A program made the translations under genes and the position numbers. Of a stretch of DNA of 64,000 bases, positions 2,973-31,300 are shown piece after piece. Every line of letters begins with the position of its first letter. The first letter of the stretch is position 1. Below the pieces are notes generated by a model that was not told where the DNA came from, did no database searches, and was given only the letters and a program-made list of their open reading frames with translations. This DNA comes from an uncultured Gammaproteobacteria bacterium (GTDB lineage Bacteria > Patescibacteriota > Microgenomatia > JALYQM01): NCBI GenBank assembly GCA_964403585.1, contig CAYOFQ010000001.1, positions 76,456 through 140,455 on the forward strand, given 5' to 3'.

Positions 2973-3929
2973 ATGAATAGTGAATCTGGAAATGGGAAGA
3001 TCTGGCTCGTACTCGTAATCCTAATCATTATTATTCCTGCCGCCATCTGGTATGTCCAGGAAAAAGACAGCCCGTCTGAAACCTTAAATAATCCGCATAT
3101 CGAAACAACCATAGCCTCGCCGCGTATACGCGCCAACAAGGTCGCGCTAAAACAGTTGGATATCACCGCATTGGATCAAAAAATCGACAAGGTCATCGCC
3201 GAACAAACGCCTGAAGGTAATAACTGGATGTTCGGGGTTGCCATAACCGACCCGCTGACAAATCAAAAATACGGCAAAAATGAAACTGAAGTTTTCGATG
3301 CGGCTTCCACAGGTAAAATCCCGATCCTTGCTTCACTGTATGATCAAATTAAATCTAAAAAAATTAACGAAGAGGAAACGATCACCATCACATCCGCAGA
3401 TGTCCAGGATTATGGTACAGGTTCCATCAGATATCAAAAAATGCCCAAGACCTACACAGTAAAGGAACTTGCCGAACTAATGATCAAGCAAAGCGACAAC
3501 ACTGCCGCCTATGTTTTAGCTACTAAAGCGGGAAGAAAAAATATTGCTCAATATGTAAAAGATCTGGGTATGGACACCACTGATACTGCCGAAAATACAA
3601 CCACCCCGTATGACATCAACCTGATGCTCGAACATATATTTAAAATGAAAGAGACTGACCCGACCACCGCCGGAACTTTGGTTAAAATGATGACCGACTC
3701 AATCTTTGAAAACCGCCTGCCGGCACTATTGCCGGAAGAAACAATTGTGGCTCACAAAATCGGGACCGGTACTGCCCAGATTCACGATGTCGGTATAGTA
3801 CTTTTAGACAAAAGACCGTACATCATCTCCGTCTTCACCAAACGCGTCAACGACGAAAAGACAGCTGAGAAAACCATTGCCGAAATCTCTAAAGAAGTGT
3901 ATGAGGAATTCCGGGCCCTTGAGCAGTAA
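2973..3929 (+). CDS. Class A beta-lactamase-like serine hydrolase with N-terminal membrane anchor
   Basis: S-x-x-K (ASTGK), SDN (QSDNTAAY) and KTG (KIGTGT) motifs appear in class-A order. An N-terminal hydrophobic segment is present. Confidence 0.7.
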   Translation: MNSESGNGKIWLVLVILIIIIPAAIWYVQEKDSPSETLNNPHIETTIASPRIRANKVALKQLDITALDQKIDKVIAEQTPEGNNWMFGVAITDPLTNQKYGKNETEVFDAASTGKIPILASLYDQIKSKKINEEETITITSADVQDYGTGSIRYQKMPKTYTVKELAELMIKQSDNTAAYVLATKAGRKNIAQYVKDLGMDTTDTAENTTTPYDINLMLEHIFKMKETDPTTAGTLVKMMTDSIFENRLPALLPEETIVAHKIGTGTAQIHDVGIVLLDKRPYIISVFTKRVNDEKTAEKTIAEISKEVYEEFRALEQ

Positions 3930-4874: not shown

Positions 4875-7658
4875 ATGCGCATTACTAAACTTCAGAAGTT
4901 AAAGAATGTTCTCCGTAAATCTTCAGTTATTATTTTAACCTTTGGACTACTGCTCTCATCCTATGGAACCTATCTATCTACCGCATCAAATGTGTATGCG
5001 GACTGGTTCGAACCGGACTGTGCACCACCAAACGGTACCGGCACAACTCTAGATCAAATCGTCAGCGCCGGCGCTCGTCGGGTAGGATTTATGGGAACCG
5101 GATACCGGGTTAAAAACTGCAGCCATACCGATAAACAAATTGGTGCAAAAATAATGTGGGGTATCTGTAAGAATCGTACCGAGTCCTGTGCATTAACCAA
5201 CGTTACAACTGTTAATCCGATCACCTTAAAAGCCGGTGAATACTATACCTTCTATGCGCCCGATGTAAACTTTAGTTGCGGTTCGGGAAGAACGGCTGTT
5301 GTTCCGGATGGAATGCAGGCTGAGGGGTTCTACACTATCGCAGACAAAGATTGCCCTGATGACGGGAATAATCCATCGCCTACGCCAACCGCTACCGCCG
5401 CACCAACCGCGACACCAAATAACGATCCCAATATGTGTCAAAGCTTAAATGTATCTTCCGGATCGATCGCCCCGGGTGGATCGGTAACGTTGACAGCTAC
5501 AGCTAACACCAACCAAATCAAGCGATTCACCTATGGCTTCTATAATCTTAATAACCTCTACGGACCAAACAATCCGAAGCCAATCCAATACCAGCAGGGC
5601 GTTAATTATGCAGTCAATCGCGACGTATCTCCATCCAACACTAATTCAATTACTGTAAACTATGCCGATCTTCATCGTGCAGATTATAACGCCGGTGGTG
5701 CAATTCCAACGCGCGTCCAGGTCAACGCCTTCTTCACCAATACTAATAATGTCTTTTCCAGTCCGGCGGCCGGATGCGTTACATATATTAATGTAGTTGC
5801 GCCAACACCTACGGTAGCTCCAACAACGACACCAACCCCCACACCGGTTCCAACCGTCACACCGACTCCAACACCCGTAGCTACTCCTACCTGCGCACCG
5901 GGTATCGATTGCGGCAATGACGGCTCACCAACGCCTACTGCACAACCTTCTCGCACACCATCACCGACTCCAACACCGACAACGCCACCGATTGGCGGAC
6001 CATCAACAACACCGTCACCAACACCGACTGCAGTTCCAACAGCTGTTCCTTCTGCAACGCCGCCGGTATCAATAACGCCGACCCCAACTCCGAGTGTGAT
6101 CCCGACCACAACGCAGTTAAAGTTCTGCAAATACGAAGACGATAACGCCAACGGTTTAATAGATTCCGGAGAAAATATTATTTCCTGGACCTTTAACTAT
6201 TCAATGAATGGTCAGTCAAACTCTGTGGACAGCCACTGGTGGGAATTCTGGAAGCAGGGATGTGCCATTGTTGACGTTCCCACAGGCACCAGCATCACTG
6301 TCAGTGAAGCAGCTAAATCCGGCTGGAGACCAACCGCAATGTACGCTGATGGCGCGCGCATCGACGGTACAACATATAATTACACATCAGATGCAGACAG
6401 CGTCAAAGTTATGTGGTTCCTCAATACCTTCACACCGGACAACACACCTGTTCCAACACCAAGTATCTTGCCAACCACCACACCGAGTACTTCACCAACA
6501 ACTTCGCCAACCCCAACAGTCACACCGTCAGGCAGCCCAACTGCATCACCTACCAGCGGTCCGACCACAACACCGTCGCCAACACCGACCGTTACACCTA
6601 CTGCCACACCAACAGTAACACCAACGGCCTCGCCGACAGCCAGCCCGTCACCAAGCGGTAGTCCGGGAGCAGTGACGCAGCTAAAAGTATGTAAATACAA
6701 CGACGAAAATAACGACGGAGTAGTGAACAACGGCGAAGGAACCATGGGCTGGAATTTTGAATACACCATAGATAACACTACCACCACCATTAGCCGCAGC
6801 GCCTGGGACATGCTGGTTCACCAGGGATGTGTTATCAGCGACGTACCGGCCAATAAATCCGTTCATGTACGCGAGCAGGGTAGAACCGATTGGTCACAAA
6901 CAGCTCTGTATGCCGATGGTGCTCGAGTCGACGGAACTGAATACACCTATACTTCTTCCACCGACGCAATAAAAGTGCTCTGGTTCTTAAATCACAATAC
7001 ACCGGGTACAACCCCATCACCAAGCCCAACAGCTAGTGTAACACCAACGGCCAGCCCGACTGCCAGCCCAACGGCCTCTCCCACAGTAAGCCCGACAGCC
7101 TCACCAACTGCAACTCCAACAGTTGCCAACTCCAACTACAATATAACGATTGAAAAACGGGTCGACGGCACCAGAGTTGATGGCGACCACGTCGGAATTC
7201 AGTATCGGGTAAAGATTAAGAACAACGGAACCAGCCGGGTAGATAGTCTCGAAGTTCGGGACACCTTACCCCCGGACTTTACCTATGATGCCAATACTAC
7301 CGAGGGTAATATCACCACCAATCCGGATATTCAGGATGTCACCGGCGACGATAACCGGCGCTTAGTCTGGCGCAATATCGCCTTAGATGGGGGACAGGAA
7401 ATCAATTTTGGCTATCGCACTACCGGCAAACGAACTGATACAAATTTCTGTAACGATGCTCAGGTTCGCCGCAACGATAACATTATCTCTACCTCACAAG
7501 CCTGTACACGAATCAACCAGGCAGGACAGACAGCCGTCTTAGCCGCAACCACTACCGCCACACTCCCGGCCACCGGCTCCAGCCCTTGGTTATACGGCGG
7601 AATCCTGCTCATGCTCACCGCCGGCTTAGGTTGGAGATTAAGCCGACACGCGGAGTAA
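4875..7658 (+). CDS. LPXTG-anchored cell-surface protein with Pro/Thr-rich linkers, two tandem ~130-aa beta-sandwich-like repeats and a DUF11-like domain
   Basis: N-terminal signal peptide and long PT linkers. Two homologous repeats each start QLK(F/V)CKY(E/N)D(D/E)N.DG. A DUF11-like segment (NYNITIEKRVDGT...) follows. The C-terminus is LPATG, then a hydrophobic stretch, then RLSRHAE, a classic sortase sorting signal. Confidence 0.85.
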   Translation: MRITKLQKLKNVLRKSSVIILTFGLLLSSYGTYLSTASNVYADWFEPDCAPPNGTGTTLDQIVSAGARRVGFMGTGYRVKNCSHTDKQIGAKIMWGICKNRTESCALTNVTTVNPITLKAGEYYTFYAPDVNFSCGSGRTAVVPDGMQAEGFYTIADKDCPDDGNNPSPTPTATAAPTATPNNDPNMCQSLNVSSGSIAPGGSVTLTATANTNQIKRFTYGFYNLNNLYGPNNPKPIQYQQGVNYAVNRDVSPSNTNSITVNYADLHRADYNAGGAIPTRVQVNAFFTNTNNVFSSPAAGCVTYINVVAPTPTVAPTTTPTPTPVPTVTPTPTPVATPTCAPGIDCGNDGSPTPTAQPSRTPSPTPTPTTPPIGGPSTTPSPTPTAVPTAVPSATPPVSITPTPTPSVIPTTTQLKFCKYEDDNANGLIDSGENIISWTFNYSMNGQSNSVDSHWWEFWKQGCAIVDVPTGTSITVSEAAKSGWRPTAMYADGARIDGTTYNYTSDADSVKVMWFLNTFTPDNTPVPTPSILPTTTPSTSPTTSPTPTVTPSGSPTASPTSGPTTTPSPTPTVTPTATPTVTPTASPTASPSPSGSPGAVTQLKVCKYNDENNDGVVNNGEGTMGWNFEYTIDNTTTTISRSAWDMLVHQGCVISDVPANKSVHVREQGRTDWSQTALYADGARVDGTEYTYTSSTDAIKVLWFLNHNTPGTTPSPSPTASVTPTASPTASPTASPTVSPTASPTATPTVANSNYNITIEKRVDGTRVDGDHVGIQYRVKIKNNGTSRVDSLEVRDTLPPDFTYDANTTEGNITTNPDIQDVTGDDNRRLVWRNIALDGGQEINFGYRTTGKRTDTNFCNDAQVRRNDNIISTSQACTRINQAGQTAVLAATTTATLPATGSSPWLYGGILLMLTAGLGWRLSRHAE

Positions 7659-11073: not shown

Positions 11074-11652
11074 ATGAAGCTTAAAACTATTGTCGTCTCA
11101 ATTCTGTCCGTCATCGTTCTTTTATTAGTAAACACACTTATCCTCATTGCTTTCCTTAGATTTAACCCGTCTCTCCTCATCTACAACCACCAGTACCAGT
11201 CTCATCACCAGGAAATGCTCGCATATTTACTGTCCGGCAACGACCAGAAACTCAATAAAATGTTACCTCAAGATGAGTTCAAGCACATTCAGGACGTCCG
11301 GCGAATTATCGCGAAAATTCCGCTAACAATTTTTCTGATAATTGCAGTAGCAAGTTACTTAACTAAAATGGATCATAAAGTATCAATTAATGAAGTAATC
11401 AACTACTCATTTATAAGTCTTTTGCTACTATTTTTAGTTGGAACATTTCTTTTTATGCCATTCTTTATTGTATTCCACGAGGTGCTTTTCCCGCAGGGAA
11501 ACTGGTCATTTCCTACAAACTCAATTTTGATTCAACTGTATCCGGAGAAATTTTGGCAATATAGCCTGATAATTATTGGTGTAATCACCACCGTGGAACT
11601 TATCTTAGTGAAGTACTTTACGAACCAGCGTCAGCGTAAGCTTGCCGAGTGA
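11074..11652 (+). CDS. Integral membrane protein (DUF1461/TIGR01906-like, tentative)
   Basis: Several predicted TM helices across ~190 aa. The family assignment is from memory only. Confidence 0.45.
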   Translation: MKLKTIVVSILSVIVLLLVNTLILIAFLRFNPSLLIYNHQYQSHHQEMLAYLLSGNDQKLNKMLPQDEFKHIQDVRRIIAKIPLTIFLIIAVASYLTKMDHKVSINEVINYSFISLLLLFLVGTFLFMPFFIVFHEVLFPQGNWSFPTNSILIQLYPEKFWQYSLIIIGVITTVELILVKYFTNQRQRKLAE

Positions 11653-11680
11653 ATCATCCGATGCTGACCTGAGCTCTGTA

Positions 11681-12634
11681 TCAAGTAAGCGAACTACAGC
11701 GTCCCGTCGATGAGCCGCCCTGTTCCGAGCTGAGTAGGGAAGTTGCAAGTCGGGCACCGGCGAGTGCGAGCAGCTCATCATGTTTTGCTTTGTCCCGTAA
11801 GTAAACTTCAGGATAGTTGGGATCATAACGCTTAACAGCTTCCTGTCCCATTCCGGTCTCCCGATCGGCTCGGTCTTTAATCAAAAATCGCAGACCACCT
11901 TTATCTTCAACGTGGTGTCTCCACCTGCGCACAAATGCGGGATCAACCACTTCATAATGGCTGGGCCCGCGGTTCGACTCTGCCCGTTCGTATGTTTCGC
12001 GTAAGGCATATAATCCGCCATGCGCGGCATTATCCCATAAAAAGTCATTAATACTATTTAAACAGTAAGGATTCACATATTCATGTTTAACCCAGTTGCG
12101 AACCACATTCCGCAGACCGGCTGAAAACATCAATTCAGTCTCTTCTTTACCTAACCCGCGCAGCTGCATATAGTCTTGCACAACAATCCAGGCAGCATTT
12201 TGTGAGAGATTACGCTCATAAGAAGTCGAAACACCTAAGTTAGTAGTCGTTTCTAAAATGCCCAGAGCGATCTCTGTTTTCTTATCGGTATCCGGCGCCA
12301 CAACTTTGGTGTATTCATCGATCAGGAATGAAAGCTTAACCGCATCGTGCTCTGTTGCTTCGTTAATAATATGAAGCCCGCGCAATGCCAGAGAAGAAAA
12401 CGCCCGTGTACCGAGGAAGGAATAATGCAGATCTCTGTCCGCGTCAAAAAAGTATTGCTGAACATCCGAAGTAAACCGTTTGTCTTTATAAAAAGTGTAA
12501 TGTTCTTGAGTTTTTGGATAATTCTTTTCGCGCGAATTACCTGCAAGGAGGGTAAGCACAGCAATGGCCTGCTCATGAGCATTCTCCGGCTCAATCGCTT
12601 CGGTAACATACCCCAGGCCTTTAATTTCAAACAC
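11681..12634 (-). CDS. Hypothetical protein, one of the few minus-strand genes
   Basis: A 317-aa ORF on the minus strand. I recognised no catalytic motif. The 3' end at 11690-11800 is locally GC-rich. Confidence 0.5.
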   Translation of the reverse strand: MFEIKGLGYVTEAIEPENAHEQAIAVLTLLAGNSREKNYPKTQEHYTFYKDKRFTSDVQQYFFDADRDLHYSFLGTRAFSSLALRGLHIINEATEHDAVKLSFLIDEYTKVVAPDTDKKTEIALGILETTTNLGVSTSYERNLSQNAAWIVVQDYMQLRGLGKEETELMFSAGLRNVVRNWVKHEYVNPYCLNSINDFLWDNAAHGGLYALRETYERAESNRGPSHYEVVDPAFVRRWRHHVEDKGGLRFLIKDRADRETGMGQEAVKRYDPNYPEVYLRDKAKHDELLALAGARLATSLLSSEQGGSSTGRCSSLT

Positions 12635-12657
12635 ATTGACGGTGTATTCCCAGGTAT

Positions 12658-12948
12658 CTATTTGCCCCGATCCAGAAGATCCTGTAACTCCGCCGTCTTC
12701 TTTTCGGAAAACCGCGCATACTCTTTGGCAATCCGCTCAGTCTTGCCTCGACGGTACAGTTTATCAAAGTGAGCTAAATCACGCGCGCTGATTGAACTTT
12801 TAAATTCCCGTTCCGCTGCAACAAGGGGAGAACGCTCAGGAACATCTTTTTGAGCTAAAGATAAACCAATATCAACGGCTTCGCCTTCAGACATAGTAAA
12901 GAGAGTATATACTACCCGGAGGCCAAACAAAACGGGAAAATAGGGCAA
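12658..12948 (-). CDS. Hypothetical small protein, probably starting at the internal Met at 12894
   Basis: Lies immediately upstream of, and co-directional with, the 317-aa minus-strand gene. The probable start is MSEGEAV.... Confidence 0.4.
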   Translation of the reverse strand: MPYFPVLFGLRVVYTLFTMSEGEAVDIGLSLAQKDVPERSPLVAAEREFKSSISARDLAHFDKLYRRGKTERIAKEYARFSEKKTAELQDLLDRGK

Positions 12949-12999
12949 TAAACCGCTCCTTTACTTCTTTAAAGCATTTCATGGTATAATACTCGAATC

Positions 13000-13677
13000 A
13001 TGCATTTCGATCTTACAGAACTTATTAAGCAAGTCGGCTATATCGGCATTTTTGCTATAGTTTTTGCCGAATCAGGCTTGCTTATCGGATTTTTCCTTCC
13101 GGGTGACAGCTTGTTATTCACTGCCGGCTTTTTAGCCTCACAAATGTTCCAGGGTCAGCCCATTTTGAACGTCGGACTACTCTATATTATCTGTCTTATA
13201 GCAGCTATATCCGGAGACAGCACCGGTTACTATATCGGACGCAAAACCGGCAAAAGAATCTTTAATAAGGAAGACTCGCTGCTGTTCAACAAGAGCCATA
13301 TTTTGAAAGCTGAAGAATTCTACGAAAAGCACGGTGGTAAGACCATTGTCCTTGCACGCTTCATGCCGGTCATCCGCACGTTTGCACCCATCGTTGCCGG
13401 AGCCGGAAATATGAAATACGGGTCTTTCGTATTTTATAACGTGGTAGGCGGATTCATTTGGGTAACCTCCATGGTCTGGGGTGGATATTTTCTGGGTCGG
13501 GTAATACCTGATGTAGATAAATATTTATTACCAATCATCGGCTTGATTGTCTTAGCTTCCGCCGGTCCGGGAGTGTATCACTTCCTCAAAGATGAAAGTA
13601 ACCGCAAGAAGGTAATGGAATTATCCAAGCAGCTCTTAAACAAAAACAAACGGCACCGCAAAACAGAAGACAAATAA
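13000..13677 (+). CDS. DedA family membrane protein
   Basis: DedA/SNARE-associated signature VFAESGLLIGFFLPGDSLLFTAGFLAS...GKTIVLARFMPVIRTFAP. Confidence 0.85.
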   Translation: MHFDLTELIKQVGYIGIFAIVFAESGLLIGFFLPGDSLLFTAGFLASQMFQGQPILNVGLLYIICLIAAISGDSTGYYIGRKTGKRIFNKEDSLLFNKSHILKAEEFYEKHGGKTIVLARFMPVIRTFAPIVAGAGNMKYGSFVFYNVVGGFIWVTSMVWGGYFLGRVIPDVDKYLLPIIGLIVLASAGPGVYHFLKDESNRKKVMELSKQLLNKNKRHRKTEDK

Positions 13678-13797
13678 GCCCTGTAAAAGCACTATTCTCC
13701 ACATATACGTATTTCTTTCGCCTTGACTTTTAACTCGCTGTACTGCAATATACATCAAGCAATAACTATTCAGTAAACGCATATTGCGAATAAAATT

Positions 13798-14943
13798 ATG
13801 TCTCTGCTCGAAGATATACAAGATTTTTCCTCACTCATTTCGCGTTACTCAACTCACAAAGTAACGTTCTGCGCTGAATCATTTGAAGCGCAGAAAAAAG
13901 TCGTCACTAAAAAAATAATTAAACGAAGAGGACAACTATCCCGTCCGACAGTTCACCTGGGCATGGTTGGCATTGTTGCCGGTGTATTAGTCGGTGGCAG
14001 TTTCATGAGTGGAACATCTTCCACTTCACCGCAATATCCGGAAGCCGACGCTGCCACACCCCAGGAAATTCCGCAAGCCGAGTTAGCCGCCTTTGGTGGA
14101 GACTCACTGGATAACATGAACGCGCAAACCCTCATCTCAGATAAGCCCCGGGATCAAATAATTGATTACACCGTCAAGTCGGGCGAGACTCTTTCACAAA
14201 TTGCCGATAATTTTGGCATCGACAGCAACACTATCAAATGGGCCAACGATTTGGAAGATAAAGACGCCATCAAGCCCGGACAGGTTCTTAAAATTCTTCC
14301 GGTTTCCGGTGTCGCGCATCATGTAGTGCGTGGTGACACCGTCTATAGCATTGCGAAAAAATACGATACCAACCCTCAGGCCATTGTGGATTTTCCCTTC
14401 AATGATATCGGCGAAAATCTTAGTTTGCGCATCAGTCAAATCATTATCGTTCCCGACGGCACACCTGAAGAAAAACCGCGCCCCTCCAAAGCACCGGTCA
14501 AAGTTGTCGAAGGCCCGACGGATACCAAGAAACCGGGCGATAAACCAACCAAGCAGGGTAATGGTATTGGTACCGGATCGTTTATGTGGCCGGTCCGCGG
14601 ACTTATCACCCAGGGCTTTAAATCCTATCACCCGGGATTGGATATTGCCGGAAGCTCCGGTGACCCGGTGGTTGCAGCCGACGGTGGAGAAGTTATTGTT
14701 TCAGGGTGGACAGACAATACCGGCTATGGCAACCGTGTCATGATTAAGCACCCCAACGGCTATGTAACACTCTATGGACATTTACTTTCCAATTCCAATC
14801 GCGTCAAGACCGGCGATAAAGTTTCCAAGGGACAGGTAATCGGACTCCGTGGTTCCACCGGCCGGTCCACAGGCCCGCACCTGCACTTTGAAGTACGTAA
14901 GCCGGGCTCCGCCAATCAGAATCCATCCAATTTCTTAAAGTAA
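13798..14943 (+). CDS. LysM-domain M23 family metalloendopeptidase
   Basis: Two LysM repeats (YTVKSGETLSQIADNFGI; HVVRGDTVYSIAKKYD). M23 motifs HPGLDIAG...D and GSTGRSTGPHLHFEV. Confidence 0.85.
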   Translation: MSLLEDIQDFSSLISRYSTHKVTFCAESFEAQKKVVTKKIIKRRGQLSRPTVHLGMVGIVAGVLVGGSFMSGTSSTSPQYPEADAATPQEIPQAELAAFGGDSLDNMNAQTLISDKPRDQIIDYTVKSGETLSQIADNFGIDSNTIKWANDLEDKDAIKPGQVLKILPVSGVAHHVVRGDTVYSIAKKYDTNPQAIVDFPFNDIGENLSLRISQIIIVPDGTPEEKPRPSKAPVKVVEGPTDTKKPGDKPTKQGNGIGTGSFMWPVRGLITQGFKSYHPGLDIAGSSGDPVVAADGGEVIVSGWTDNTGYGNRVMIKHPNGYVTLYGHLLSNSNRVKTGDKVSKGQVIGLRGSTGRSTGPHLHFEVRKPGSANQNPSNFLK

Positions 14944-14958: not shown

Positions 14959-16041
14959 ATGAATGAGATAACAATTAAGGAAAAAGCATTTCCGCTTCCC
15001 ACCTTCTTTCCTGATGCCACCCGTGGTGTCATCAGAACCCTGGATAGCCAGGATTTGCATCAAAGCGGTGTCGAAGGACTAATCGTCAATACCTACCATC
15101 TGATGAGCAAGCCGGGGACAACGGTCTTAAAAGAGGTCGGGGGAATCAAAGCCCTGATGGGGTGGGACGGCTGGATAATTTCCGATTCCGGTGGATTTCA
15201 GTTACTTTCCATGATTTATCAGAACCCTGCCTTTGGAAAAATCAATCGTGATGGCGTAATTTTTTATCGCGACTCCAAAGGCGGCAAGGAAAAATACAAT
15301 TTCACTCCCGAAAAATCCATCCAGGTGCAGTTCGCCTTGGGCGCGGATATTATGATCTGTCTTGACGATTGTCCGCCCCTGGGGGCAACACCGCAGGAAG
15401 AGCAGGAGAGTATTCAGCGCACCATCGAATGGGCGAGGCGCTGCAAGGAAGAATTTGAAACCCAGGTTAAAAATAAAAAAATGACGGGTGCAAATCGTCC
15501 GTTATTGTTTGGCGTAATTCAGGGTGGCAACAGCAAAGAACTCCGCGAACAGTGTGCTCAGGCACTCATTAATATAGGTTTTGACGGATACGGATTTGGC
15601 GGCTGGCCGTTGGATGAAGGCGGTAAGTACAACAACGAAATTCTCCAATTTACTGCCGATCTTATTCCCAAAGAACTGCCTAAATACGCCTTAGGCGTCG
15701 GCAATCCGCAGGCCGTCCATGATTGTTACCAAATGGGCTGGAATATTTTTGATTGTGTCCTGCCAACCAGAGACGCGCGCCACCAGCGGTTATATATTCT
15801 GGAGTCAAACAATACCGGGCAAATCTACTCCTATCTCCACATCTCTCAGGAAAAATATACCCGGGATACCCAGCCAATCGATCCGAACTGTGATTGCCAC
15901 ACCTGTCAAAAATACTCTCGGGCCTATTTAAAACACTTGTTCGAAATTGAAGATGCCACCGCCTCGCGCCTTGCTACCATGCACAATGTACGAACCTATA
16001 CCCGTTTAATTGAAAAATTGCGGGTCAGCGGTACGATATAA
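14959..16041 (+). CDS. tgt: Queuine tRNA-ribosyltransferase
   Basis: TGT signatures include DSGGFQ and LGVGNP. A C-terminal Zn site CDCHTCQKYSRAYLKHL is present. Confidence 0.9.
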   Translation: MNEITIKEKAFPLPTFFPDATRGVIRTLDSQDLHQSGVEGLIVNTYHLMSKPGTTVLKEVGGIKALMGWDGWIISDSGGFQLLSMIYQNPAFGKINRDGVIFYRDSKGGKEKYNFTPEKSIQVQFALGADIMICLDDCPPLGATPQEEQESIQRTIEWARRCKEEFETQVKNKKMTGANRPLLFGVIQGGNSKELREQCAQALINIGFDGYGFGGWPLDEGGKYNNEILQFTADLIPKELPKYALGVGNPQAVHDCYQMGWNIFDCVLPTRDARHQRLYILESNNTGQIYSYLHISQEKYTRDTQPIDPNCDCHTCQKYSRAYLKHLFEIEDATASRLATMHNVRTYTRLIEKLRVSGTI

Positions 16042-16050
16042 TGTCGGCAT

Positions 16051-16848
16051 ATGCCGGACACACATTCCATCATTACTAAAATCAGTCAAACTAAAAAATA
16101 TCGCGCACTTGCACCACAAACTATTCAACGGATTGTCGAAGAAACCGCGCGCAGATATCGCCCCTCTGAAGTAGAGAATGAGTCAAAGAAAAAACTTCAT
16201 CAGATCTGGGGAGCATACTATTCCACTCGACCGAATTTCCAAAAAATACTTTCCAAAATTGACGAAGAAATACATACCGGAAAAACCGTCAAAGAAATAT
16301 TTCATCCACTATTGCAGATTCATGCATCAACCCGAGAACGGATGCCAATTCTGGATGAGTTTTATACAAACATATTTGCCATTACCGGGCATCCTGCGAG
16401 CATCATTGACCATGCAGCAGGTCTGAATGCACTTACACTGCCATGGATGCAATTACCCGCTACAACTAACTACACAGCCCGGGACATAGATGTCGAAGAG
16501 GTTATGTTTATAAACACTGTTTTTAAAAAAATACCCGGCTTTTCAAATAATAAAAGCGAAGTACATGATCTCTTTGAGCATGGAATTCCGTCGGCACAAA
16601 TGCATTTCCTTTTTAAAATCTTGCCACTCCTTGAACAACAGCATAAAGGCGCAGCGCATCACATCTTAAATAAAATAATAGGGAAATGGATTATCGTGAC
16701 CTATCCCACTGCATCACTTTCAGGAATTAATAAAGGCATGCTGCAAACCTATATGTCTCATTGCGAGGAAATTATCAATCAGGAAAACTGGAAACACACC
16801 AAATTGAATTTTCCGGGAGAACTGGTTTATATAATTGAAAAAAACTAA
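16051..16848 (+). CDS. 16S rRNA (guanine1405-N7)-methyltransferase, ArmA/Rmt (FmrO) family homolog
   Basis: Long blocks match my memory of ArmA and RmtB. Examples: SKKKLHQIWGAYYSTRPNFQKIL against ArmA SKKKLHQIWGSYYSAYPNWDKLL; LQIHASTRERM; LDEFYTNIF; IIDHAAGLNALTL against DFGCGFNPLAL; FKILPLLEQQ; TYPTASLSGINKGM; GELVYIIEKN. Confidence 0.7.
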   Translation: MPDTHSIITKISQTKKYRALAPQTIQRIVEETARRYRPSEVENESKKKLHQIWGAYYSTRPNFQKILSKIDEEIHTGKTVKEIFHPLLQIHASTRERMPILDEFYTNIFAITGHPASIIDHAAGLNALTLPWMQLPATTNYTARDIDVEEVMFINTVFKKIPGFSNNKSEVHDLFEHGIPSAQMHFLFKILPLLEQQHKGAAHHILNKIIGKWIIVTYPTASLSGINKGMLQTYMSHCEEIINQENWKHTKLNFPGELVYIIEKN

Positions 16849-17555
16849 AAACGGTCATCAGCCTGATCAATCTCTTCAATCTGTGGTACACCGCTAAAAG
16901 ATTCAAATGCTGCAATATTTTTAACCAGCATCTCTCGGGTAGTAAAGGGATTAGTAATATATTCATGGAGCGAATCAAAATCAACCCACTCGTAAGTACC
17001 TTCATTATTCCCAATCAGTTCACCGGTAGGGTTATTGCACAAACAATAAAACATAAACTTATCTTCTAAAAGCTCATTAGTTTTATTATCATAAATTCGG
17101 TAATGATTGAGTTTCACAATTACAGGTACACCATCCAGATTTGTTTCTTCTTTCATCTCCCGGATACCGGCTTCGACAACGCTTTCTCCGAAACGTATCT
17201 TACCTGAAAAGAACCCCTGGCACCCGTAAAAAGGTTGTTTCTTGCGGGTATAGATTAAATACTGTATCCGTCCGTCAAGTACCCGCCGGCAACAAATAGT
17301 TACCGAGAGTTTGGCCTGCTTTTGTATCGAAACCGTGTCGGTATCCATTCGGTTGGCATACTCTTTCCCCGCAGGGGTCAAAGTATAGCCGTCTTCGGCT
17401 TTAACCACATGGCCGGCTTTAATCAGCTGATCAAGATGGAAATCCAACTGGTTATTCTCAATTTCAGCGCTGGGTTTGAGTTCGGAATATCGCAGGTGCG
17501 TGGCGAACAATAAACGCTTCAGAATCTGTAGTTGGAGGGTATGTAACTGCTTCAT
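16845..17555 (-). CDS. NUDIX hydrolase with N-terminal winged-helix domain
   Basis: Nudix box GKIRFGESVVEAGIREMKEETNL. An N-terminal HTH-like segment is LQLQILKRLLFATHLRYSEL. Confidence 0.75.
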   Translation of the reverse strand: MKQLHTLQLQILKRLLFATHLRYSELKPSAEIENNQLDFHLDQLIKAGHVVKAEDGYTLTPAGKEYANRMDTDTVSIQKQAKLSVTICCRRVLDGRIQYLIYTRKKQPFYGCQGFFSGKIRFGESVVEAGIREMKEETNLDGVPVIVKLNHYRIYDNKTNELLEDKFMFYCLCNNPTGELIGNNEGTYEWVDFDSLHEYITNPFTTREMLVKNIAAFESFSGVPQIEEIDQADDRF

Positions 17556-17659: not shown

Positions 17660-19063
17660 ATGTTGGATTACGCAAAAGTAAAAATCAAAGCTGGAGATGG
17701 CGGTAAAGGCCTGGTTGGTTTCCACCGGGAGAAATTTGTACCGAAAGGTGGACCTGACGGTGGTGACGGCGGCAAAGGCGGCGACTTCTATATTGAAGCC
17801 TCCAACAGTGTGTCCACACTCCTGGACTTCCAATTCCTTGACCATTTCGATGCTGAAAGCGGTGAACCTGGGGGTACCTCTAATAAGCATGGCAAGGACG
17901 GACACGACTATATTCTCAAAGTTCCGGTCGGCAGCATCATTCGCATCAATAAGTTAACTGTAGATTTACCAACCAATAAACGACGAAAAGGCGATGTTCG
18001 AGAGCCAAACAAGTATGAACAAAAAGTATTCAATTATAAAAAAATAGAAAAATTGAAAAATCGTCACGAAGCCTTGCAGGATGAGGAAGAGATAAGCGTT
18101 GAACAGCCTATAACAATCAACACCTCCGAAGATGTCGAAGATATTTCTAAAGTACATCAAACAATATCACAAAATGATTCCGATGATATCGTTGAAGAAT
18201 ACGAGGATAATAAAGAAAAAACACCATCGGAAGGATATAAAGTCTACGATTTTAGCGAAAAAAGTAAATATAGCGCTAATACTCAACGAACTCAAAAAAG
18301 CATCGGATCCCAATACGAAAAAGACGAACGACCGGTCTTTGATCTTGATCAGGAAAGCAAGAAAATAATGATCGCCCGCGGCGGCGTTGGCGGCAGAGGC
18401 AACACCCGTTTTAAAAATTCCATCGATAAAGCACCTAAGTTTGCTGAGGCCGGACAAAAAGGCGAATATGTTGAAATTGAAATCATCCTGAAGATGGTTG
18501 CCAATGTCGGATTAATCGGACTACCCAATGCCGGGAAATCAACAATTCTTTCCAAACTCACTGCGGCATCACCAAAAATTGCCAATTACGCCTTTACAAC
18601 TCTCGAACCGAATCTCGGTGTTATGACCGAAGGTGATCAGCGAATTATTCTGGCAGATATACCTGGTTTAATTGAAGGAGCGTCGCAAGGTAAAGGATTA
18701 GGCTACAGATTTTTGCAGCATATTGAAAGAACTGAGCTTCTTGTCCATGTAATCGCTATTCCGGATATACAATCAGACACAACACCTGAAGCGCTAAAAG
18801 ACGAAATACTGAATACATACACTACTGTCCGTCAGGAGTTGGAGCAGTATGGGCATGAAATTCCGCAAAAAAAAGAAATCGTTATCATCAATAAAATAGA
18901 CAAGCTCCCGGAGGGACAGAACACCGTATATATACCGCCGATTGAAGAAGCGCTTAAAAAACTCGGCGAACCGTACGGCTTCATTTCAGCTGAACAGGAG
19001 TTGGGATTAAATGGATTGAAGAAAATAATTCACGCTGCGCTTGTGACCGGGCAAGATAAGTGA
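17660..19063 (+). CDS. obg: GTPase Obg/CgtA with a ~150-aa low-complexity insertion
   Basis: Obg fold N-domain with Gly-rich GDGGKG...GGDGGKGGD. G-domain motifs GLIGLPNAGKST and DIPGLIEGA. An acidic/lysine-rich insert at about aa 95-240 separates the two. Confidence 0.9.
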   Translation: MLDYAKVKIKAGDGGKGLVGFHREKFVPKGGPDGGDGGKGGDFYIEASNSVSTLLDFQFLDHFDAESGEPGGTSNKHGKDGHDYILKVPVGSIIRINKLTVDLPTNKRRKGDVREPNKYEQKVFNYKKIEKLKNRHEALQDEEEISVEQPITINTSEDVEDISKVHQTISQNDSDDIVEEYEDNKEKTPSEGYKVYDFSEKSKYSANTQRTQKSIGSQYEKDERPVFDLDQESKKIMIARGGVGGRGNTRFKNSIDKAPKFAEAGQKGEYVEIEIILKMVANVGLIGLPNAGKSTILSKLTAASPKIANYAFTTLEPNLGVMTEGDQRIILADIPGLIEGASQGKGLGYRFLQHIERTELLVHVIAIPDIQSDTTPEALKDEILNTYTTVRQELEQYGHEIPQKKEIVIINKIDKLPEGQNTVYIPPIEEALKKLGEPYGFISAEQELGLNGLKKIIHAALVTGQDK

Positions 19064-25282: not shown

Positions 25283-25606
25283 TCCCCCGCAAACGCGTCA
25301 ACGATCCAAGTTCCTTAAAATCGGGTAGTGGAGAAGCGTGAGGATTGGATTCTTCGGCTAAAGTCCGTGCTTAAGCATGGATAGAATCTGAAACAATCGA
25401 ATCTCTCTAAATTCTCTACTACCGCCAATAGTAATTTCCAATCCTGACTTCCATTATCCCTATCAGAAGATACAGATAGTTATTTATAGATATCTTTTGA
25501 TACGGATAATGGAATACAAAGGAAAACTAATGAAACAAGCTCAGGCACCGTAGACGGCCGTTTGTTTAGATCGCTGAAACTGAAAGAAAGCAAAGGAGAA
25601 ACAACT

Positions 25607-26365
25607 GTGAATGATCCAACTCCAATCGAGCAGGCCCGACAACTAATCGGCGAACAACGCTACGACGAGGCACTGCAAATCCTGCGTGAACTAACCGAGG
25701 CCGAGCCTACCAACGTGGAGGCCTGGCTGCTTTCGGCTCAAGTTCTCGCCGAACCATCGACGAAGAAGTACTGCTACAAGAAAGTGCTCGAGATCGACCC
25801 GACCAACGAGACCGCGCTCAAAGGCCTGCAGGCCCTGCCTCCGGACGAAGCCGAGGTCGTATTCGATGGCCAACCGGCCCTTGATTCAAGAGGCCGCGTC
25901 CCCGGCCGTGTTGGTGAGACTGATCAGGTTCTGAGCGATGTGTACGCCGATGCTGGTGTCGCCACAGGGCAAGGTGCTCCAAGGCGCCGTCGGCTTCGCT
26001 GGCTTATCCCAGCAGTTCTTGTGCTGCTCCTGCTAGTAGTTCTGGCGCTCGCCCTTGGCAGCCGCTCCGGCACACCGCCTGCAGCGTCACCTACGCCACC
26101 ACCCGCCACCGCCCAGCCGCAGGCAACCGCGCCCGCACAACCGACCGCCGCGACCGAATCGACGGCTGCACCAGAGCCGACGGCCCCGCCGCCGACCAAC
26201 GCACCGCAGCCTACCGCTGTGCCGACTTCCGCCCCGACCACCGCGCCGACTAGCCCGCCACCCACCGCCGCGCCCACAAACTCCGGCGCCCTGCGCCCGG
26301 GCGACACGGTCATTTCGACCGCGACGCCAGCTACCAGGCCAGGCGTTCTGCGCCCCGGCGGCTAG
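25607..26365 (+). CDS. GC-rich island ORF b: TPR-like N-domain, TM helix, Pro/Ala/Thr-rich region ending in LRPG repeats
   Basis: The probable start is GTG at 25607, with AAAGGAG 7 nt upstream; the ORF track extends it to 25562. One TM (WLIPAVLVLLLLVVLALALG). The C-terminus is ...GALRPGDTVISTATPATRPGVLRPGG*. Confidence 0.55.
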   Translation: MNDPTPIEQARQLIGEQRYDEALQILRELTEAEPTNVEAWLLSAQVLAEPSTKKYCYKKVLEIDPTNETALKGLQALPPDEAEVVFDGQPALDSRGRVPGRVGETDQVLSDVYADAGVATGQGAPRRRRLRWLIPAVLVLLLLVVLALALGSRSGTPPAASPTPPPATAQPQATAPAQPTAATESTAAPEPTAPPPTNAPQPTAVPTSAPTTAPTSPPPTAAPTNSGALRPGDTVISTATPATRPGVLRPGG

Positions 26366-27094: not shown

Positions 27095-28171
27095 GTGAAA
27101 CGCTTACCAAACCTGCGGTACCTTTTGAGCATCGCGATGCTCGTGCTGGCCGCCCTCGCCGCCGCCCCGGCCGCCGCCGCGCCCGCCACCTGTGCCAAAC
27201 CGATCAACGGCAAGGGCGAAATTCACGGCAAGACCTATCAGTCGGACTGCATCAACGACACCACCGACCCGTTCGACCTAGCGGTCAGCGGCAATTTCGG
27301 CAAGGCCGATACTGTGTTGCTCCAGCTCCGCTCACCAAGCCAGCTGAGCTTCCAGCTCGACCCCAAAGACCCGGCAGCCATTGCCGTAGTGCCGAACGCC
27401 TGGTCGGATCCCATCATGTGGGACAAGTCGTATAACGACCACGCCATCCGCATCCTGCCGTACGGCGCCGTCGAGATTTCGGCGACGTCGACGCTGGCTC
27501 TGTGGTACATCACCCGCCAACCCGCTCAGGTCGTCGCACAGCCGACACCCACCAACACCGCCGGCCAGCTCGTGGCCCAGTCGCAGGTAGAGAACCAAAC
27601 CATCGATATCGCCGACGCGACCGCGCTGGCGAAGATCAAGCTGCACGATGGAGATGAGCTGGAGTGGAGCTTCGCAAAGTCGGCTACGCCGATCACGCTG
27701 ACGCTCTCGTCGGACAAGCCCTCGTACCCATTCTCGCTGATCCACGCCTCGAGCGGCACCGCCCAGTTTCAGTCGAAGATCTGGAGCAAGTCGAAAGGCC
27801 ACGAGATTCGCACGCAGGTGCCATCTGACCACGGCACTTTGAACAGCGGCCCTGCTGTGATCTCGATTTCCGTGGAGGCACCCGCCGGCACCACCGACCA
27901 GCTGAATCTGAAGATCACCCGCGCCGCGCAGCCCGCTACCTCCGCTGGCTCGAACGCCACGGTGCCAAACGGCGACTTGCCAAACACCGGCTGGGCCGAC
28001 TTGGGCGGCTTGATGCAGCTCGGCGACTCCGCTACCAACCAGACCACCGGCATGAACGCTTTCATCACCTTCCCCCTCAGCGCTACCCAGCGCTGGGTCG
28101 TCGGTGGCCTCGCCGCCTTGCTCGCCATCGGCCTCTTGGCCCGCCGCCGGCGCGCCTCCAAGGCACGCTAG
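27095..28171 (+). CDS. GC-rich island ORF c: secreted surface protein with LPNTG motif and C-terminal TM plus Arg-rich tail
   Basis: GTG start with AGGAG 8 nt upstream. Signal peptide. The C-terminal region has DLPNTG, then about 38 aa, then the hydrophobic stretch VVGGLAALLAIGLLA and RRRRASKAR. This is a sortase-signal-like layout with an atypically long gap. Confidence 0.6.
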   Translation: MKRLPNLRYLLSIAMLVLAALAAAPAAAAPATCAKPINGKGEIHGKTYQSDCINDTTDPFDLAVSGNFGKADTVLLQLRSPSQLSFQLDPKDPAAIAVVPNAWSDPIMWDKSYNDHAIRILPYGAVEISATSTLALWYITRQPAQVVAQPTPTNTAGQLVAQSQVENQTIDIADATALAKIKLHDGDELEWSFAKSATPITLTLSSDKPSYPFSLIHASSGTAQFQSKIWSKSKGHEIRTQVPSDHGTLNSGPAVISISVEAPAGTTDQLNLKITRAAQPATSAGSNATVPNGDLPNTGWADLGGLMQLGDSATNQTTGMNAFITFPLSATQRWVVGGLAALLAIGLLARRRRASKAR

Positions 28172-28386: not shown

Positions 28387-31300
28387 ATGAACGAATCAGC
28401 AATGCACTTCCGGGGAATGGAATTTAATAATCCCTTCCCAAACCGCGATCTCGAACAACTCACCAAAAAGATGGAGGAGTTGCGCGAACGTGCCGGTCAC
28501 TTCTCGCTGTCAGTTGGCGAAAGATTAGCAAACGTCAGAGAGCAATTGCAAACATATTCGCAAATCGCCCAGGAAAAAATTATCCAAACCGACCATAACT
28601 TAACCATGCTTGCGCATATCCACCGCGAAAAAATTATTGACGGTGCCGAATTTGCAGCCGCCCATCCGGTTGAAGCCGGAAAAATAGTTATCAAAAAAGG
28701 CTGGATTTATGCCGCCGGCGCCGGAGCGCGCTATGCACTAATTGCTACGGGCACTGCCATGGGCTACATGCTCTATCCGGTTGCTGCATTTGGTACCGCA
28801 CTTTCATCAATGGTTGTAGGAGGGTACAAAGATTGGCAAACCATGCACAGTAAAAACGGTGCCCGCGAGCTATACAACAAATACGTTGGCAAAGACGCGC
28901 TCCGTGCCGAAACCTATGACGATGATCAAAAGACCGGTTGGTGGAACGCCGTTAAAAAATTTACCGGCAGATATTCCATGTCTGTCAAAGAAGGCTATCG
29001 CCGCGCCTATGGCGCCTATACGTACAAAGAAGTTATCAACCAAATGGTTGAAGATACCTCAGAAGAAAATTTTAGCAAATATGCTGAAAGAATTGCTAAT
29101 GCCACACACGGTGAAATAGATTACCGTGCTTTGCACAGATTACAGGCAGAATTAAGAGATAAACTTATTGACGCCAGTTACGGTGTTGCCGTTGCCATGA
29201 ACAACCACACACGCAAAGATGGTCAGGCAGTTATTAAAAAATATTTTTCAGTCCTGCAACAAACAGCTGAATATACCAAAGTCGACACAGCGGAATTCAT
29301 GAGTCAAGTTGCCGAACAGAAAAACAAAAGACTGGAGTCCTCAGCTAAAAAAGGTTTTGCCGCAACATTATTATCCCGCGGCAGCTGGTCAATGGCCCGC
29401 TTCGCTTCCGGGGGCGCACTACTCGGACGTTTCACCCCCAAGGCCGAAGCCCACGACGCCATCTTTGGGAATCAACACCAACCGGAAACACCAAAGGTGC
29501 AAATTGGTCACGCTGTTCGTGAAGACCAATACGTACCTAAAACAGAAACCGCTCCACAACCAAAACCATCATTTAAGACATCATCTGTACGAACAGATAT
29601 CCGGTCTGAACTACGAGCAGAAAATGCTGCATTTGTGCATACAGTTCCAGAACCAAAAGTAGCCGCTGTACCAAGGATAGAAATGAAACCGATTGAAATA
29701 TCTGTTGAGCAAAACCACGGTCTGTTCATATCTCTTAAAAACAGTGGTTGGGGAGATATAAGTGATAGTGACAGTGGTGCACGTTTTATGGCTGAAGTGG
29801 CACCTCTCTTTCGTGGACATGGATTATCTGAAGAACAATACCAAGACCTAATGCGAGTAGTCTATGAAAATAAAGATATCACCGCTGAGGATTTATGGAA
29901 AAAATTCAAATGGTTTGATAAAGCTTTCATGGTCCATGCAGGAAAATTCAATATTAATATTCCTCAAGTGGTTGATGACCCAACCATTAAAGTAAATTAT
30001 GATTTCACGGCTCAAACAGTTCGTCGAGAAGGAGTTCCTAAAGTATTATTCAGCGTACTACTTAAGGACGATCCACCTCCTAAACCTGAAGGAGGAGTAT
30101 TGCACCCGGGCGGATCTGGTTTGGGAACGAATCATGCCGAAGGTACAGTATTACGTCCAGGAGGACGGCCAAATATTCCAACAACCGAGAATGTACCCGT
30201 GCGACCATTGCCAGACGCGAGTGATCGTCTGATGGATAATTCTCCGAATACTACAGTGCCAGAACGCAAACCTAACGTTCTACACCCAGGTGGAGGGCAG
30301 CCAACTACACCTGCGCAAAGTGAAGCATTACGACCAGGTCAATCAACTATCAATCAAGAGGATGGAGCTGCTAATACCGAAACATTAAAGCCGGGATCAA
30401 CAGTAATAAATACTCCTACCGAAGCTCGAATGCATCCGGGTAGTACAATCTTTAAGGATAAACCCACATCATCAGCTACTGTCACATTGCGGCCTGGAGC
30501 TACTACTATTAACGATCAAGTCGAACAACAAGCCGCAGCCCAACCACTTCCCGCAGCTGAAATTCCCAGAGCTAAAGAATTCAACTTCAACCAGGAATTC
30601 TTTGTCAGCTCCGCCAATAAAATAATTGAAATCACCAAAGAAAACGTAAAGCGCTGGTTGCACTTACCACTCTCCATTAATGAACTTCCTGCAGATCCAA
30701 ACTGGGATGAAACAATTGTTTCAGAATACATGGGCCGCACAATTATATTTGTACACTCCGCCCGCAAAGATGGTATGGATTTACCTGGCAACTTCTTCCG
30801 TGAAGCAGCCGAGCTTGGACAGAGTTCCTTCGGATATGGGCAGGACCAGGTCCAGGAGTACTTAAAACAAGCGATCAGTGAAAATCGAACAGCTTTATTT
30901 ACCGGCCAAGACGGTTCTCAACAGACGTTCCGCTTAACGAATGCCTTCTACCAGCCGTATCGCGAAGTGGTGCAAGAAGATCTCTGGGGAAATAAGTACG
31001 ATAACAACCTTTCCGATTTAGCCCAATACGTCAGCCAGACAAATAAAGACGACGTGATCATAGTTTTCTGTGGACGTTCACATGTTGAAGCAATCCGCAA
31101 AGGAATCGAAATCATGCAGGAAGTAAAAAGTACCTTACCAGCAGAACAAAAGGATGTCGCGGAAACAGTAATAATCACACTGCAAAATAGTAAAGCAACT
31201 GGCCAATCCTACACTAATGCGGTGCAAAACATGTTCAGCATATTAAAAGCAAGCAACCCTAAAGAATATGAAAAGCTCTTACTGCTTTATACCGGTGAAC

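Follow-up and report, generated by a model that had tools for sequence, protein, structure and literature searches.

The 16S rRNA (guanine1405-N7) methyltransferases of the FmrO/Arm family are best known from plasmids and from aminoglycoside producers. The producer enzymes Sgm, Grm, and Kgm belong to Micromonospora and Streptomyces, and a structure of Sgm is available (PDB 3lcu). The acquired enzymes comprise ArmA, which is clinical and borne by Tn1548, and RmtA-H, of which RmtC has been resolved bound to the 30S ribosomal subunit (PDB 8ghu). The literature searched identifies neither the progenitors nor the native function of ArmA and RmtA-H. Here, we describe a member of the family, referred to as window FmrO, which is encoded at positions 16051-16848 on the forward strand of a 64,000-nucleotide stretch of contig CAYOFQ010000001.1 (assembly GCA_964403585.1) from an uncultured bacterium; the whole stretch is called the window. 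Window FmrO is probably a native and competent methyltransferase that is co-transcribed with the adjacent tgt, a tRNA-guanine transglycosylase gene, as one case of an ancient and widespread tgt-FmrO pair, and the N7-methylation of G1405 (m7G1405) that it would introduce is probably constitutive.

The genes rmtA and rmtD were reportedly first described with an upstream tRNA ribosyltransferase gene; a full-text literature search for the pairing gave nothing. The plasmid side of the tgt-rmt pairing is already known, because a review places rmtG in an operon together with rsmH, tgt, and rsmL (PMC9311965). A native counterpart of this pairing was not found in the searchable literature. Methyltransferases resembling resistance enzymes have been reported from genomes of the Candidate Phyla Radiation (CPR), among them a protein annotated as a 16S rRNA m7G1405 methyltransferase (Maatouk et al. 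2021; Razzouk et al. 2026). The later survey, a preprint of July 2026, screened 12,552 CPR genomes for such enzymes (10.64898/2026.07.13.738296). As far as their accessible text goes, these surveys are BLAST/CDD counts with no mention of gene context or tgt linkage.

Family membership, fold, and catalytic residues

The open reading frame (ORF) of window FmrO starts with ATG, occupies exactly 16051-16848 (+), and encodes 265 amino acids. Its product matches the Pfam family FmrO (PF07091) with E=4e-48 and 164.5 bits against a cutoff of 27 bits, and the match covers profile positions 2-255 of 255. Among sequences in the PDB, only m7G1405 enzymes match below E=0.5: Sgm (7e-41), RmtC (5e-26), RmtF (2e-25), RmtB (4e-23), and a truncated chain of ArmA (3e-17). 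BLASTP aligns window FmrO to ArmA with 35% identity over 237 residues (E=1e-45). The preliminary description, made from the DNA letters alone, had recognised a homolog of the ArmA/Rmt/FmrO family, and the Pfam and BLASTP searches bear this out.

In an alignment of 92 sequences produced with MAFFT, window FmrO is 33.6% identical to ArmA, 32.7% to Sgm, 30.8% to RmtG, 30.4% to RmtB, 28.2% to RmtF, and 27.9% to RmtC; the producer enzyme Sgm is as close to it as ArmA. The sequence blocks listed in the preliminary description are all present, but their characterisation as long and near-identical to ArmA and RmtB is overstated, given the overall identities to these two enzymes. The wording holds for one block and for ArmA only: SKKKLHQIWGAYYS in window FmrO and SKKKLHQIWGSYYS in ArmA share 13 of 14 residues. 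The other blocks are motifs of the whole family that are alike but not near-identical, such as HASTRERM and FKILPLLEQQ, which read HSSTNERV and LKMLPVLKQQ in ArmA. The NCBIfam exception models for RmtB-H give window FmrO 81.6-106.8 bits, compared with lineage cutoffs of 500-550 bits. The output of the NCBIfam scan included no RmtA or ArmA model, and the relation to ArmA was judged from pairwise identity. By these sequence comparisons, window FmrO is a full-length member of the FmrO/Arm family that falls outside every named acquired lineage.

In a neighbour-joining tree with 100 bootstraps, window FmrO and six metagenomic proteins form a group supported at 97%, which three further proteins join at 67%. 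The clade is on the ArmA/RmtC side of the tree, apart from RmtB/F/G, Sgm, and a large group rich in Chloroflexi. The deeper nodes have bootstrap values of 5-18%, with 5% for the node that joins ArmA to the window clade, and therefore the clade is not claimed to be a sister of ArmA. The family is small and the window clade is rare in sequence databases: an exhaustive phmmer search of 1.84 billion representatives clustered at 50% identity recovered 1,388 FmrO-family clusters at E<=1e-3 and 228 at E<=1e-30, and just two representatives are at least 50% identical to window FmrO. A scan of genome contigs with the window protein alone gave three loci, one of which is armA in Providencia, and a search of a phage collection gave only armA, on two Acinetobacter contigs labelled as phage.

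The AlphaFold2 model of window FmrO, calculated from 49 homologs, has a mean predicted local distance difference test (pLDDT) score of 94.9. It has a two-domain layout with an N-terminal helical N1/N2 part and a C-terminal class I Rossmann methyltransferase domain. A Foldseek comparison matches the model to Sgm over its full length with a TM-score of 0.88-0.90 and a root-mean-square deviation of 2.1 Å. RmtC, RmtF, and RmtB follow with TM-scores of 0.76-0.88, ArmA is also matched, and the next fold is below 0.52. The sole stretch of low confidence comprises residues 221-230 (pLDDT 67), which is expected because the equivalent loop of RmtC becomes ordered only on the 30S subunit.

The residues established by experiment for Sgm (Husain et al. 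2010, PMC2896518) and RmtC (Srinivas et al. 2023, PMC10054953) were mapped onto the MAFFT alignment. The cofactor-binding residues H102, S104, T105, R108, D131, A133, G135, D156, D182, L183, and Q207 of Sgm are all kept, as H91, S93, T94, R97, D120, A122, G124, D145, D173, L174, and Q197 of window FmrO, and L198 of Sgm is conservatively replaced by F188. The proposed guanine-binding residues F64, E107, K199, and P229 of Sgm correspond to Y56, E96, K189, and P219. The HASTRER motif (16321-16341, +), in which H91, S93, T94, E96, and R97 correspond to H102, S104, T105, E107, and R108 of Sgm, would by analogy bind the carboxypropyl group of S-adenosylmethionine (SAM) and contribute to guanine binding; its serine, glutamate, and arginine are invariant in all 92 aligned sequences. 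Further along the same strand are motif I, D120-H-A122-A-G124 (16408-16422; D131, A133, and G135 of Sgm), the motif II residue D145 (16483-16485; Sgm D156, which binds the ribose hydroxyls of SAM; aspartate in 91 of 92 sequences), and the motif III residue D173 (16567-16569; Sgm D182, which binds adenine; aspartate in 87 of 92). K189 (16615-16617) is a lysine in 92 of 92 sequences and is equivalent to RmtC K204 and Sgm K199, which contacts N7 of the flipped G1405. Window FmrO also has the family residue in all 12 alignment columns with an invariance of at least 93%.

The putative 30S-docking domain comprises residues 1-90 (16051-16320, +), with model helices at residues 4-12, 22-33, 38-54, 63-75, and 80-88. 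Its residues K16, Y17, R35, Y36, K46, H50, and Y56 correspond to K20, Y21, R39, Y40, R50, H54, and Y60 of RmtC. The exchange of RmtC R50 for K46 is conservative, and lysine likewise occurs in ArmA and Sgm. Substitution of K20, Y21, R39, H54, Y60, K204, or M245 of RmtC abolishes resistance in minimum inhibitory concentration (MIC) assays (PMC10054953). These seven residues are kept in window FmrO as K16, Y17, R35, H50, Y56, K189, and M230, as are RmtC Y40 and S239, despite an identity of 28% between the two proteins. The RmtC residues K43, K47, R211, K236, and R241 are not kept. K43 is replaced by S39, K47 by N43, and R211 by Q196, and ArmA likewise has asparagine and glutamine at the latter two positions. 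The loop A221-M230 (16711-16740, +) corresponds to K236 and Loop237-246 of RmtC, which distorts helix 44 (h44) of 16S rRNA; it retains S224 and M230, the equivalents of RmtC S239 and M245, and differs at A221 and I226.

In this mapping, the SAM-binding and catalytic residues, on which the preliminary description had made its assignment depend, are intact. Window FmrO is therefore predicted, with fairly good confidence, to be catalytically competent.

The tgt-FmrO pair and its native locus

The gene tgt (14959-16041, +) encodes a tRNA-guanine transglycosylase with a Pfam TGT match of E=1e-96 and a TIGR00430 score of 331.7 bits, above the cutoff of 306.75 bits. Its stop codon lies at 16039-16041, and the FmrO gene starts after a spacer of 9 nucleotides (TGTCGGCAT; 16042-16050, +), which contains no obvious Shine-Dalgarno sequence and no terminator. 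A scan for promoters and terminators around the operon found 19 promoter-like sites, compared with 13 +/- 3.9 expected, and neither a promoter-like nor a terminator-like site between tgt and the FmrO gene; the scan is uninformative. A search of Rfam at gathering thresholds found only a tRNA-Ala(GGC), and no preQ1 or other riboswitch near tgt. We infer that tgt and the FmrO gene are co-transcribed and perhaps translationally coupled, because the spacer is short and devoid of a terminator or an obvious ribosome-binding site, and because equally short gaps occur elsewhere.

The pairing recurs in environmental sequences. A scan of metagenomes yielded 62 loci, of which 35 were left after the removal of near-duplicates and of loci with less than 300 nucleotides of upstream sequence. 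The search patterns were built from an alignment of the window protein, and the sample is biased towards its relatives. A Tgt gene is directly upstream on the same strand in 21 of the 35 loci, and the alignment-to-alignment gap is at most 41 nucleotides in 19 of these 21. Distant environmental homologs are organised as TGT-PAP2-FmrO in one case and TGT-FmrO in others, and one FmrO homolog adjoins the gene of IleRS instead of tgt. Chloroflexi have two FmrO genes in a row (TGT-FmrO-FmrO-RsmF-type methyltransferase), and RsmE-type and Vut_1 (YhhQ-family) genes lie close by. Two tandem FmrO paralogs following tgt were observed in the loci L019 and L020 (4201-5825), which include Chloroflexi HGW-Chloroflexi-10, and also in L064, L071, L072, and L074. 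In L019 and L020, the paralogs are followed by a gene of an RsmF/RsmB-type m5C methyltransferase, an arrangement suggestive of a gene cluster for decoding-centre modification.

The two proteins of the pair diverge together. A Mantel test on 26 non-redundant Tgt-FmrO pairs gave r=0.84, which was reached in none of 2000 permutations, and r=0.85 when the three closest relatives of the window pair were left out. In this set, Tgt has a mean distance of 0.50 and FmrO one of 0.62. One protein of the representative library, P0310 (628 residues), is predicted to be a fusion of TGT (9-356) and FmrO (376-621). It is a single case, and therefore it may be an artefact of gene calling or a frameshift; if it is a true fusion, it supports a functional coupling of TGT and FmrO.

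The Tgt of the window is non-canonical. In an alignment with Tgt of E. coli, it has GFGGWPL in place of the canonical GGLAVGE and FFPDAT in place of FMPVGT. The same holds for all FmrO-linked Tgts, plasmid ones included, which have GGW(P/T) and (F/Y)xPDAT at these positions (34 of 36 scorable sequences); examples are those at 4905-5996 in locus L015, 3095-4204 in L020, 3501-4586 in L022, and 3507-4580 in L023. Both the catalytic aspartates and the zinc site CxCxxC...H are intact in the linked Tgts. The GGW motif is common among the 120 closest database homologs of the window Tgt. No solved structure of a GGW-type Tgt was found, and the closest one is that of the canonical Tgt of Z. mobilis. 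The sequence motifs suggest that the linked Tgts form a distinct subfamily, the base specificity of which may differ from that of preQ1-type Tgt. The linkage of FmrO to a non-canonical Tgt is a more interesting lead than the FmrO gene itself.

The best named relatives of the window Tgt, with 55-57% identity, are from Ca. Daviesbacteria, a 'Patescibacteria group bacterium', and candidate division WWE3, and from these relatives the host is judged to be Patescibacteria-like (CPR). The content of the window fits this assignment: the genes lie nearly all on one strand, many large proteins are unannotated, and ComEC is split into two ORFs.

An identical FmrO protein is encoded by an NCBI contig of 1.57 Mb and also by a Logan contig of 7.8 kb, where the genes are arranged as in the window. 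The order Lit - VTT/DedA - LysM-M23 - tgt - [FmrO] - Obg - YtxH is kept in four related assemblies (GCA_030154765.1, GCA_964535655.1, GCA_964462765.1, and JGI 3300071358), the FmrO proteins of which are 51-60% identical to window FmrO. In the window, the upstream part of the block (11074-14943, +), identified from Pfam matches and the order in relatives, consists of genes of Lit (11074-11652), VTT/DedA (13000-13677), and a LysM-M23 peptidase (13798-14943), with two unannotated ORFs of the minus strand after Lit. The downstream anchor is obg, which encodes a GTPase (17660-19063, +; Pfam and synteny). VTT and M23 are 80-89% and Obg 73-76% identical in the relatives. Small lineage-specific inserts lie between tgt and the FmrO gene in the relatives: PIN/PhD toxin-antitoxin pairs, a cytidylyltransferase-like gene, and hypothetical genes.

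The gene that converges on the FmrO gene encodes a wHTH (DUF7347) and Nudix protein according to Pfam (16845-17555, -), and its stop codon overlaps the TAA stop codon of the FmrO gene. The FmrO gene thus lies between tgt and a Nudix gene, as first described. The conserved block from Lit to YtxH does not include the Nudix gene, which is not between the FmrO gene and obg in L005, L006, and L008 and lies further downstream in JGI 3300071358.

The composition of the gene is not decisive. Its GC content is 39.3% (36.8% at third codon positions, GC3), compared with a mean of 44.7 +/- 3.0% (GC3 45.1 +/- 4.4%) for the genes of the window. GC, GC3, and codon usage give z of about -1.8 to -1.9, which places the gene inside the range of the host, as the preliminary description had it, but at the low end. 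Across lineages, the GC content of FmrO genes follows that of the host from 36.7 to 64.4%, and in low-GC genomes it is usually a few points under that of the adjacent tgt. The low GC is therefore a property of the gene and not a mark of recent transfer. Composition was set aside as a test of nativeness, and synteny was used in its place.

A recently acquired mobile resistance gene, or the self-protection gene of an aminoglycoside producer, would be in line with a GC content 5 points under the window mean and with the sources from which the family is best known. The synteny effectively refutes a recent acquisition, since it is kept across genomes whose FmrO proteins differ by 40-49%. Pfam scans of the larger ORFs of the window show no transposase or integrase, a GC content below that of tgt is common to the gene in several low-GC lineages, and identity to any plasmid gene is at most 36%. 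Self-resistance of a producer was rejected, since no aminoglycoside biosynthetic genes are present among the Pfam-scanned ORFs of the window. Such an origin is very improbable, and the first impression of a gene that is native rather than recently acquired holds: with the joint confidence given to the whole explanation, the FmrO gene is probably native, chromosomal, and vertically inherited.

Proposed role and further features of the window

If window FmrO works as Sgm, RmtB, and RmtC do, its basic helical domain at the N-terminus would dock on the mature 30S subunit at the surface formed by h24/h27/h44/h45. The loop around M230 in the C-terminal part would wedge into h44, distort it, and flip G1405 into the active site of the Rossmann fold. 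There, K189 and Y56 would position the flipped base for transfer of the methyl group of SAM to N7. In the host, the modification is probably constitutive and part of the normal set of the decoding centre. Ribosomes modified in this way would be insensitive to 4,6-disubstituted deoxystreptamine (4,6-DOS) aminoglycosides, which is perhaps not what selection acts on.

Constitutive m7G1405 is the most economical explanation, given the age of the pair, the joint divergence of its members, and, in some lineages, its association with rsmH, rsmF, and rsmE-type genes. Enzymes of the RsmH, RsmF, and RsmE types modify the nearby h44 nucleotides C1402, C1407, and U1498 (PMC12406665). In E. coli, m7G1405 enzymes measurably alter translational fidelity and interfere with RsmF (PMC12406665), and therefore a physiological role in the tuning of decoding is plausible.

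Several observations weigh against a native, competent enzyme that is transcribed with tgt and modifies G1405 constitutively. Window FmrO scores 218.3 bits with the generic Rmt equivalog model of NCBIfam (NF000466), which is under the curated cutoff of 250 bits. The spacing of the genes is the sole basis of co-transcription. One Daviesbacteria tgt has no FmrO gene beside it, and FmrO is thus not universal in CPR. In three of the relatives, the flanking proteins are 73-89% identical and FmrO just 56-59%, which points to a weaker or different constraint; FmrO is therefore taken to have been inherited with its neighbours while evolving faster. In the loop that distorts h44, K236 of RmtC is replaced by A221 and the near-universal R241 by I226. 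K236 and R241 of RmtC contact G1405 and U1495, and charge reversal of either abolishes RmtC function (PMC10054953). Lastly, in the preprint of Razzouk et al. one CPR protein annotated as an m7G1405 methyltransferase produced no change of MIC in E. coli BL21 (10.64898/2026.07.13.738296). This negative result is weak, since the available text of the preprint mentions no expression check and its sequence labels are muddled.

The exchanges in the loop and the divergence of FmrO, which is faster than that of its neighbours, would also fit an enzyme that has kept the fold and the SAM chemistry and acts on another substrate, such as a different h44/h45 nucleotide, an assembly intermediate, or an RNA connected to Tgt. 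Tandem FmrO paralogs in Chloroflexi and other loci suggest sub-functionalisation in the family, and the CPR homolog that gave no resistance in E. coli, according to the accessible part of the preprint, points the same way. However, K189, Y56, E96, P219, H50, and M230, which position the flipped G1405, are all kept. Alanine occupies the K236 position in 32 of 92 family members. Throughout the window clade, the R241 position is variable (R, Q, K, A, K, S, Q, T, N), and K228, two residues past I226, is constant in the clade and common to Sgm and ArmA. In addition, every family member with a determined target modifies G1405, as far as stated in the available portion of the source (PMC2760815). A shifted target is accordingly improbable, and G1405 is retained as the likely substrate of a constitutive enzyme.

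It is also conceivable, at a rather low probability that nonetheless exceeds that of a shifted target, that the gene is kept mainly to protect the cell, or a pair of epibiont and host, from 4,6-DOS aminoglycosides of actinomycetes. Methylation of G1405 is an established mechanism of high-level resistance for every characterised member of the family, and the catalytic apparatus of window FmrO appears intact in the alignment. The patchy distribution in CPR and the fast evolution of FmrO are typical of accessory defence genes. The window contains a gene of the class A beta-lactamase family, in line with resistance-like genes reported from CPR; class A and D beta-lactamase-like genes have been described in CPR genomes of the Microgenomates group, according to the accessible text of that survey (Maatouk et al. 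2021). Against dedicated defence stands the tight and ancient link of FmrO to tgt, and elsewhere to rsmH, rsmF, and rsmE-type genes, with none to transporters, aminoglycoside-modifying enzymes, or mobile elements. No aminoglycoside-related genes are present among the Pfam-scanned ORFs, and the loss of two residues critical in RmtC speaks against defence as the primary role. The authors of the preprint argue, in its available text, that uptake of aminoglycosides should be poor in fermentative CPR cells, and this, together with the absent MIC shift of their CPR homolog, also disfavours that role (10.64898/2026.07.13.738296).

For CPR methyltransferases in general, the same preprint favours, in its accessible text, a role in restriction-modification or nucleotide scavenging (10.64898/2026.07.13.738296). 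Fold, residues, and context do not support these roles for the FmrO family. Restriction-modification was rejected for window FmrO, since only rRNA m7G methyltransferases match it in fold and residues, and since its gene has no restriction gene as a neighbour. Constitutive modification of the decoding centre by a native enzyme paired with tgt is thus kept as the probable role.

Other features were observed in the window. The beta-lactamase-family gene is at 2973-3929 (+) and encodes 318 residues (Beta-lactamase2, E=3e-50); a similar gene is near the TGT-FmrO pair in locus L088 (3083-4003). Obg has 467 residues, a long acidic insertion of low complexity separates its Obg fold from the GTPase domain, and its GTP1_OBG match is in two stretches; the Obg proteins of the relatives are similarly long (472-475 residues). 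The ComEC domains 'Competence' and metallo-beta-lactamase are on two overlapping ORFs, 40170-41456 and 41434-42351 (+), and ComEA is encoded upstream at 36515-37315. Two further ORFs, 46907-47506 and 47391-48161 (+), overlap by 116 nucleotides in different frames and both match the nucleoside diphosphate kinase domain, each match being split into two stretches; they may represent a tandem or interrupted ndk or a frameshift. Between about 23900 and 28200, the GC content rises to 51-64% from a background of 45%, and the ORFs have no Pfam match and contain long low-complexity segments rich in proline, alanine, and threonine. Examples are 25562-26365, with a weak sub-threshold TPR match and a PT-rich tail, and 27095-28171, with an N-terminus resembling a signal peptide. 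Long shadow ORFs are present on the opposite strand, and the stretch could encode linkers of surface proteins or be a foreign island. Very large ORFs are at 50719-59592 (+; 2957 residues), 4875-7658 (927 residues), and 28387-31392 (1001 residues); in Pfam, the 927-residue product has only a weak DUF11 match and the 1001-residue product has none.

Mobilised tgt-rmt units and clinical relatives

In the mobilised units, as in the window, tgt is immediately upstream of the methyltransferase gene, in the same order and on the same strand. On the Klebsiella pneumoniae plasmid NZ_CP089428.1, rsmH is upstream, a full-length tgt overlaps the start of rmtG, and an IS91-family element is downstream. A plasmid search with the rmtG-linked Tgt found tgt-rmtD2, with a Tgt of 76.7% identity, and tgt-metallophosphoesterase-rmtB2 in Providencia, with a Tgt of 64.6% identity. 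A 5'-truncated tgt abuts rmtE2, beside an IS91-family transposase. In the Providencia rettgeri plasmid p12100-NDM (L023, NZ_CP118864.1), the order is corA ... tgt - metallophosphoesterase - rmtB2 - truncated cation:proton antiporter, with an IS91-family element and IS26 at the borders. The gene rmtB2 thereby retains more of its presumed original context than rmtB1 and could help to trace the rmtB progenitor.

The GGW-type Tgts of the mobilised units are 44-46% identical to the window Tgt, compared with 36-40% to Tgt of E. coli. They nevertheless form a group of their own, with 66-77% identity to each other. The mobilised units are plasmid-borne, have a GC content of 56-60%, and are flanked by IS91/ISCR-type elements and IS26, whereas the unit of the window is chromosomal, low in GC, and located among housekeeping genes. 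The GC content of the rmtG, rmtD2, and rmtB2 units and the similarity of their Tgts therefore point to related high-GC progenitors and not to the lineage of the window.

ArmA is the closest acquired enzyme. It shares the nearly identical block EVENxSKKKLHQIWGxYYS with window FmrO, as well as asparagine at the K47 and glutamine at the R211 positions of RmtC, and both genes are low in GC (30.4% for armA and 39.3% for the window gene). The two enzymes differ in that ArmA has lysine at both the K236 and R241 positions. Window FmrO is 17th of 91 among the relatives of ArmA in the dataset, and no tgt is annotated within about 400 bases on either side of armA. Sgm, the best match in the PDB, belongs to the same Pfam family and has the same two-domain fold as window FmrO; it differs by its identity of 33%, its actinomycete host as opposed to a low-GC CPR-type one, and the arginine at the R241 position in place of I226. 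As judged from these identities, at most 36% to any plasmid gene, and from the rank among ArmA relatives, the window gene is no progenitor of any clinical gene. The preliminary description had expected it to be informative about the reservoir of this resistance family. That value is limited, with no progenitor at an identity of 34% or less, but the tgt-rmt arrangement is common to the window and to the mobilised rmtB2, rmtD2, rmtE2, and rmtG.

A wider reading is put forward tentatively and with clearly less confidence than the native pair itself. The Tgt with the GGW pocket and FmrO may form an ancient co-evolving module that modifies the wobble nucleotide G34 of tRNA and G1405 of 16S rRNA. 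In Patescibacteria, Chloroflexi, and others, m7G1405 would be a housekeeping modification and resistance an exaptation, and the clinical rmtB, rmtD, rmtE, and rmtG would have been captured with pieces of tgt from high-GC relatives.

Window FmrO offers a view of one such enzyme in what is probably its natural state: chromosomal, vertically inherited, and tied to tgt among translation genes. The pair of tgt and methyltransferase is present in about 60% of the sampled related environmental loci and in the DNA captured with rmtB2, rmtD2, rmtE2, and rmtG, and this recurrence supports an origin of the resistance enzymes as ordinary modification enzymes of the decoding centre. For surveillance, the locus advises caution against scoring such metagenomic homologs as resistance genes without functional data. 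The linked and slower-evolving tgt provides a practical handle for tracing the origins of clinical genes and, if the proposed module is real, would serve as a second marker for the unknown progenitors of clinical rmt genes. The occurrence of m7G1405 as a native rRNA modification in uncultivated bacteria thereby becomes testable.

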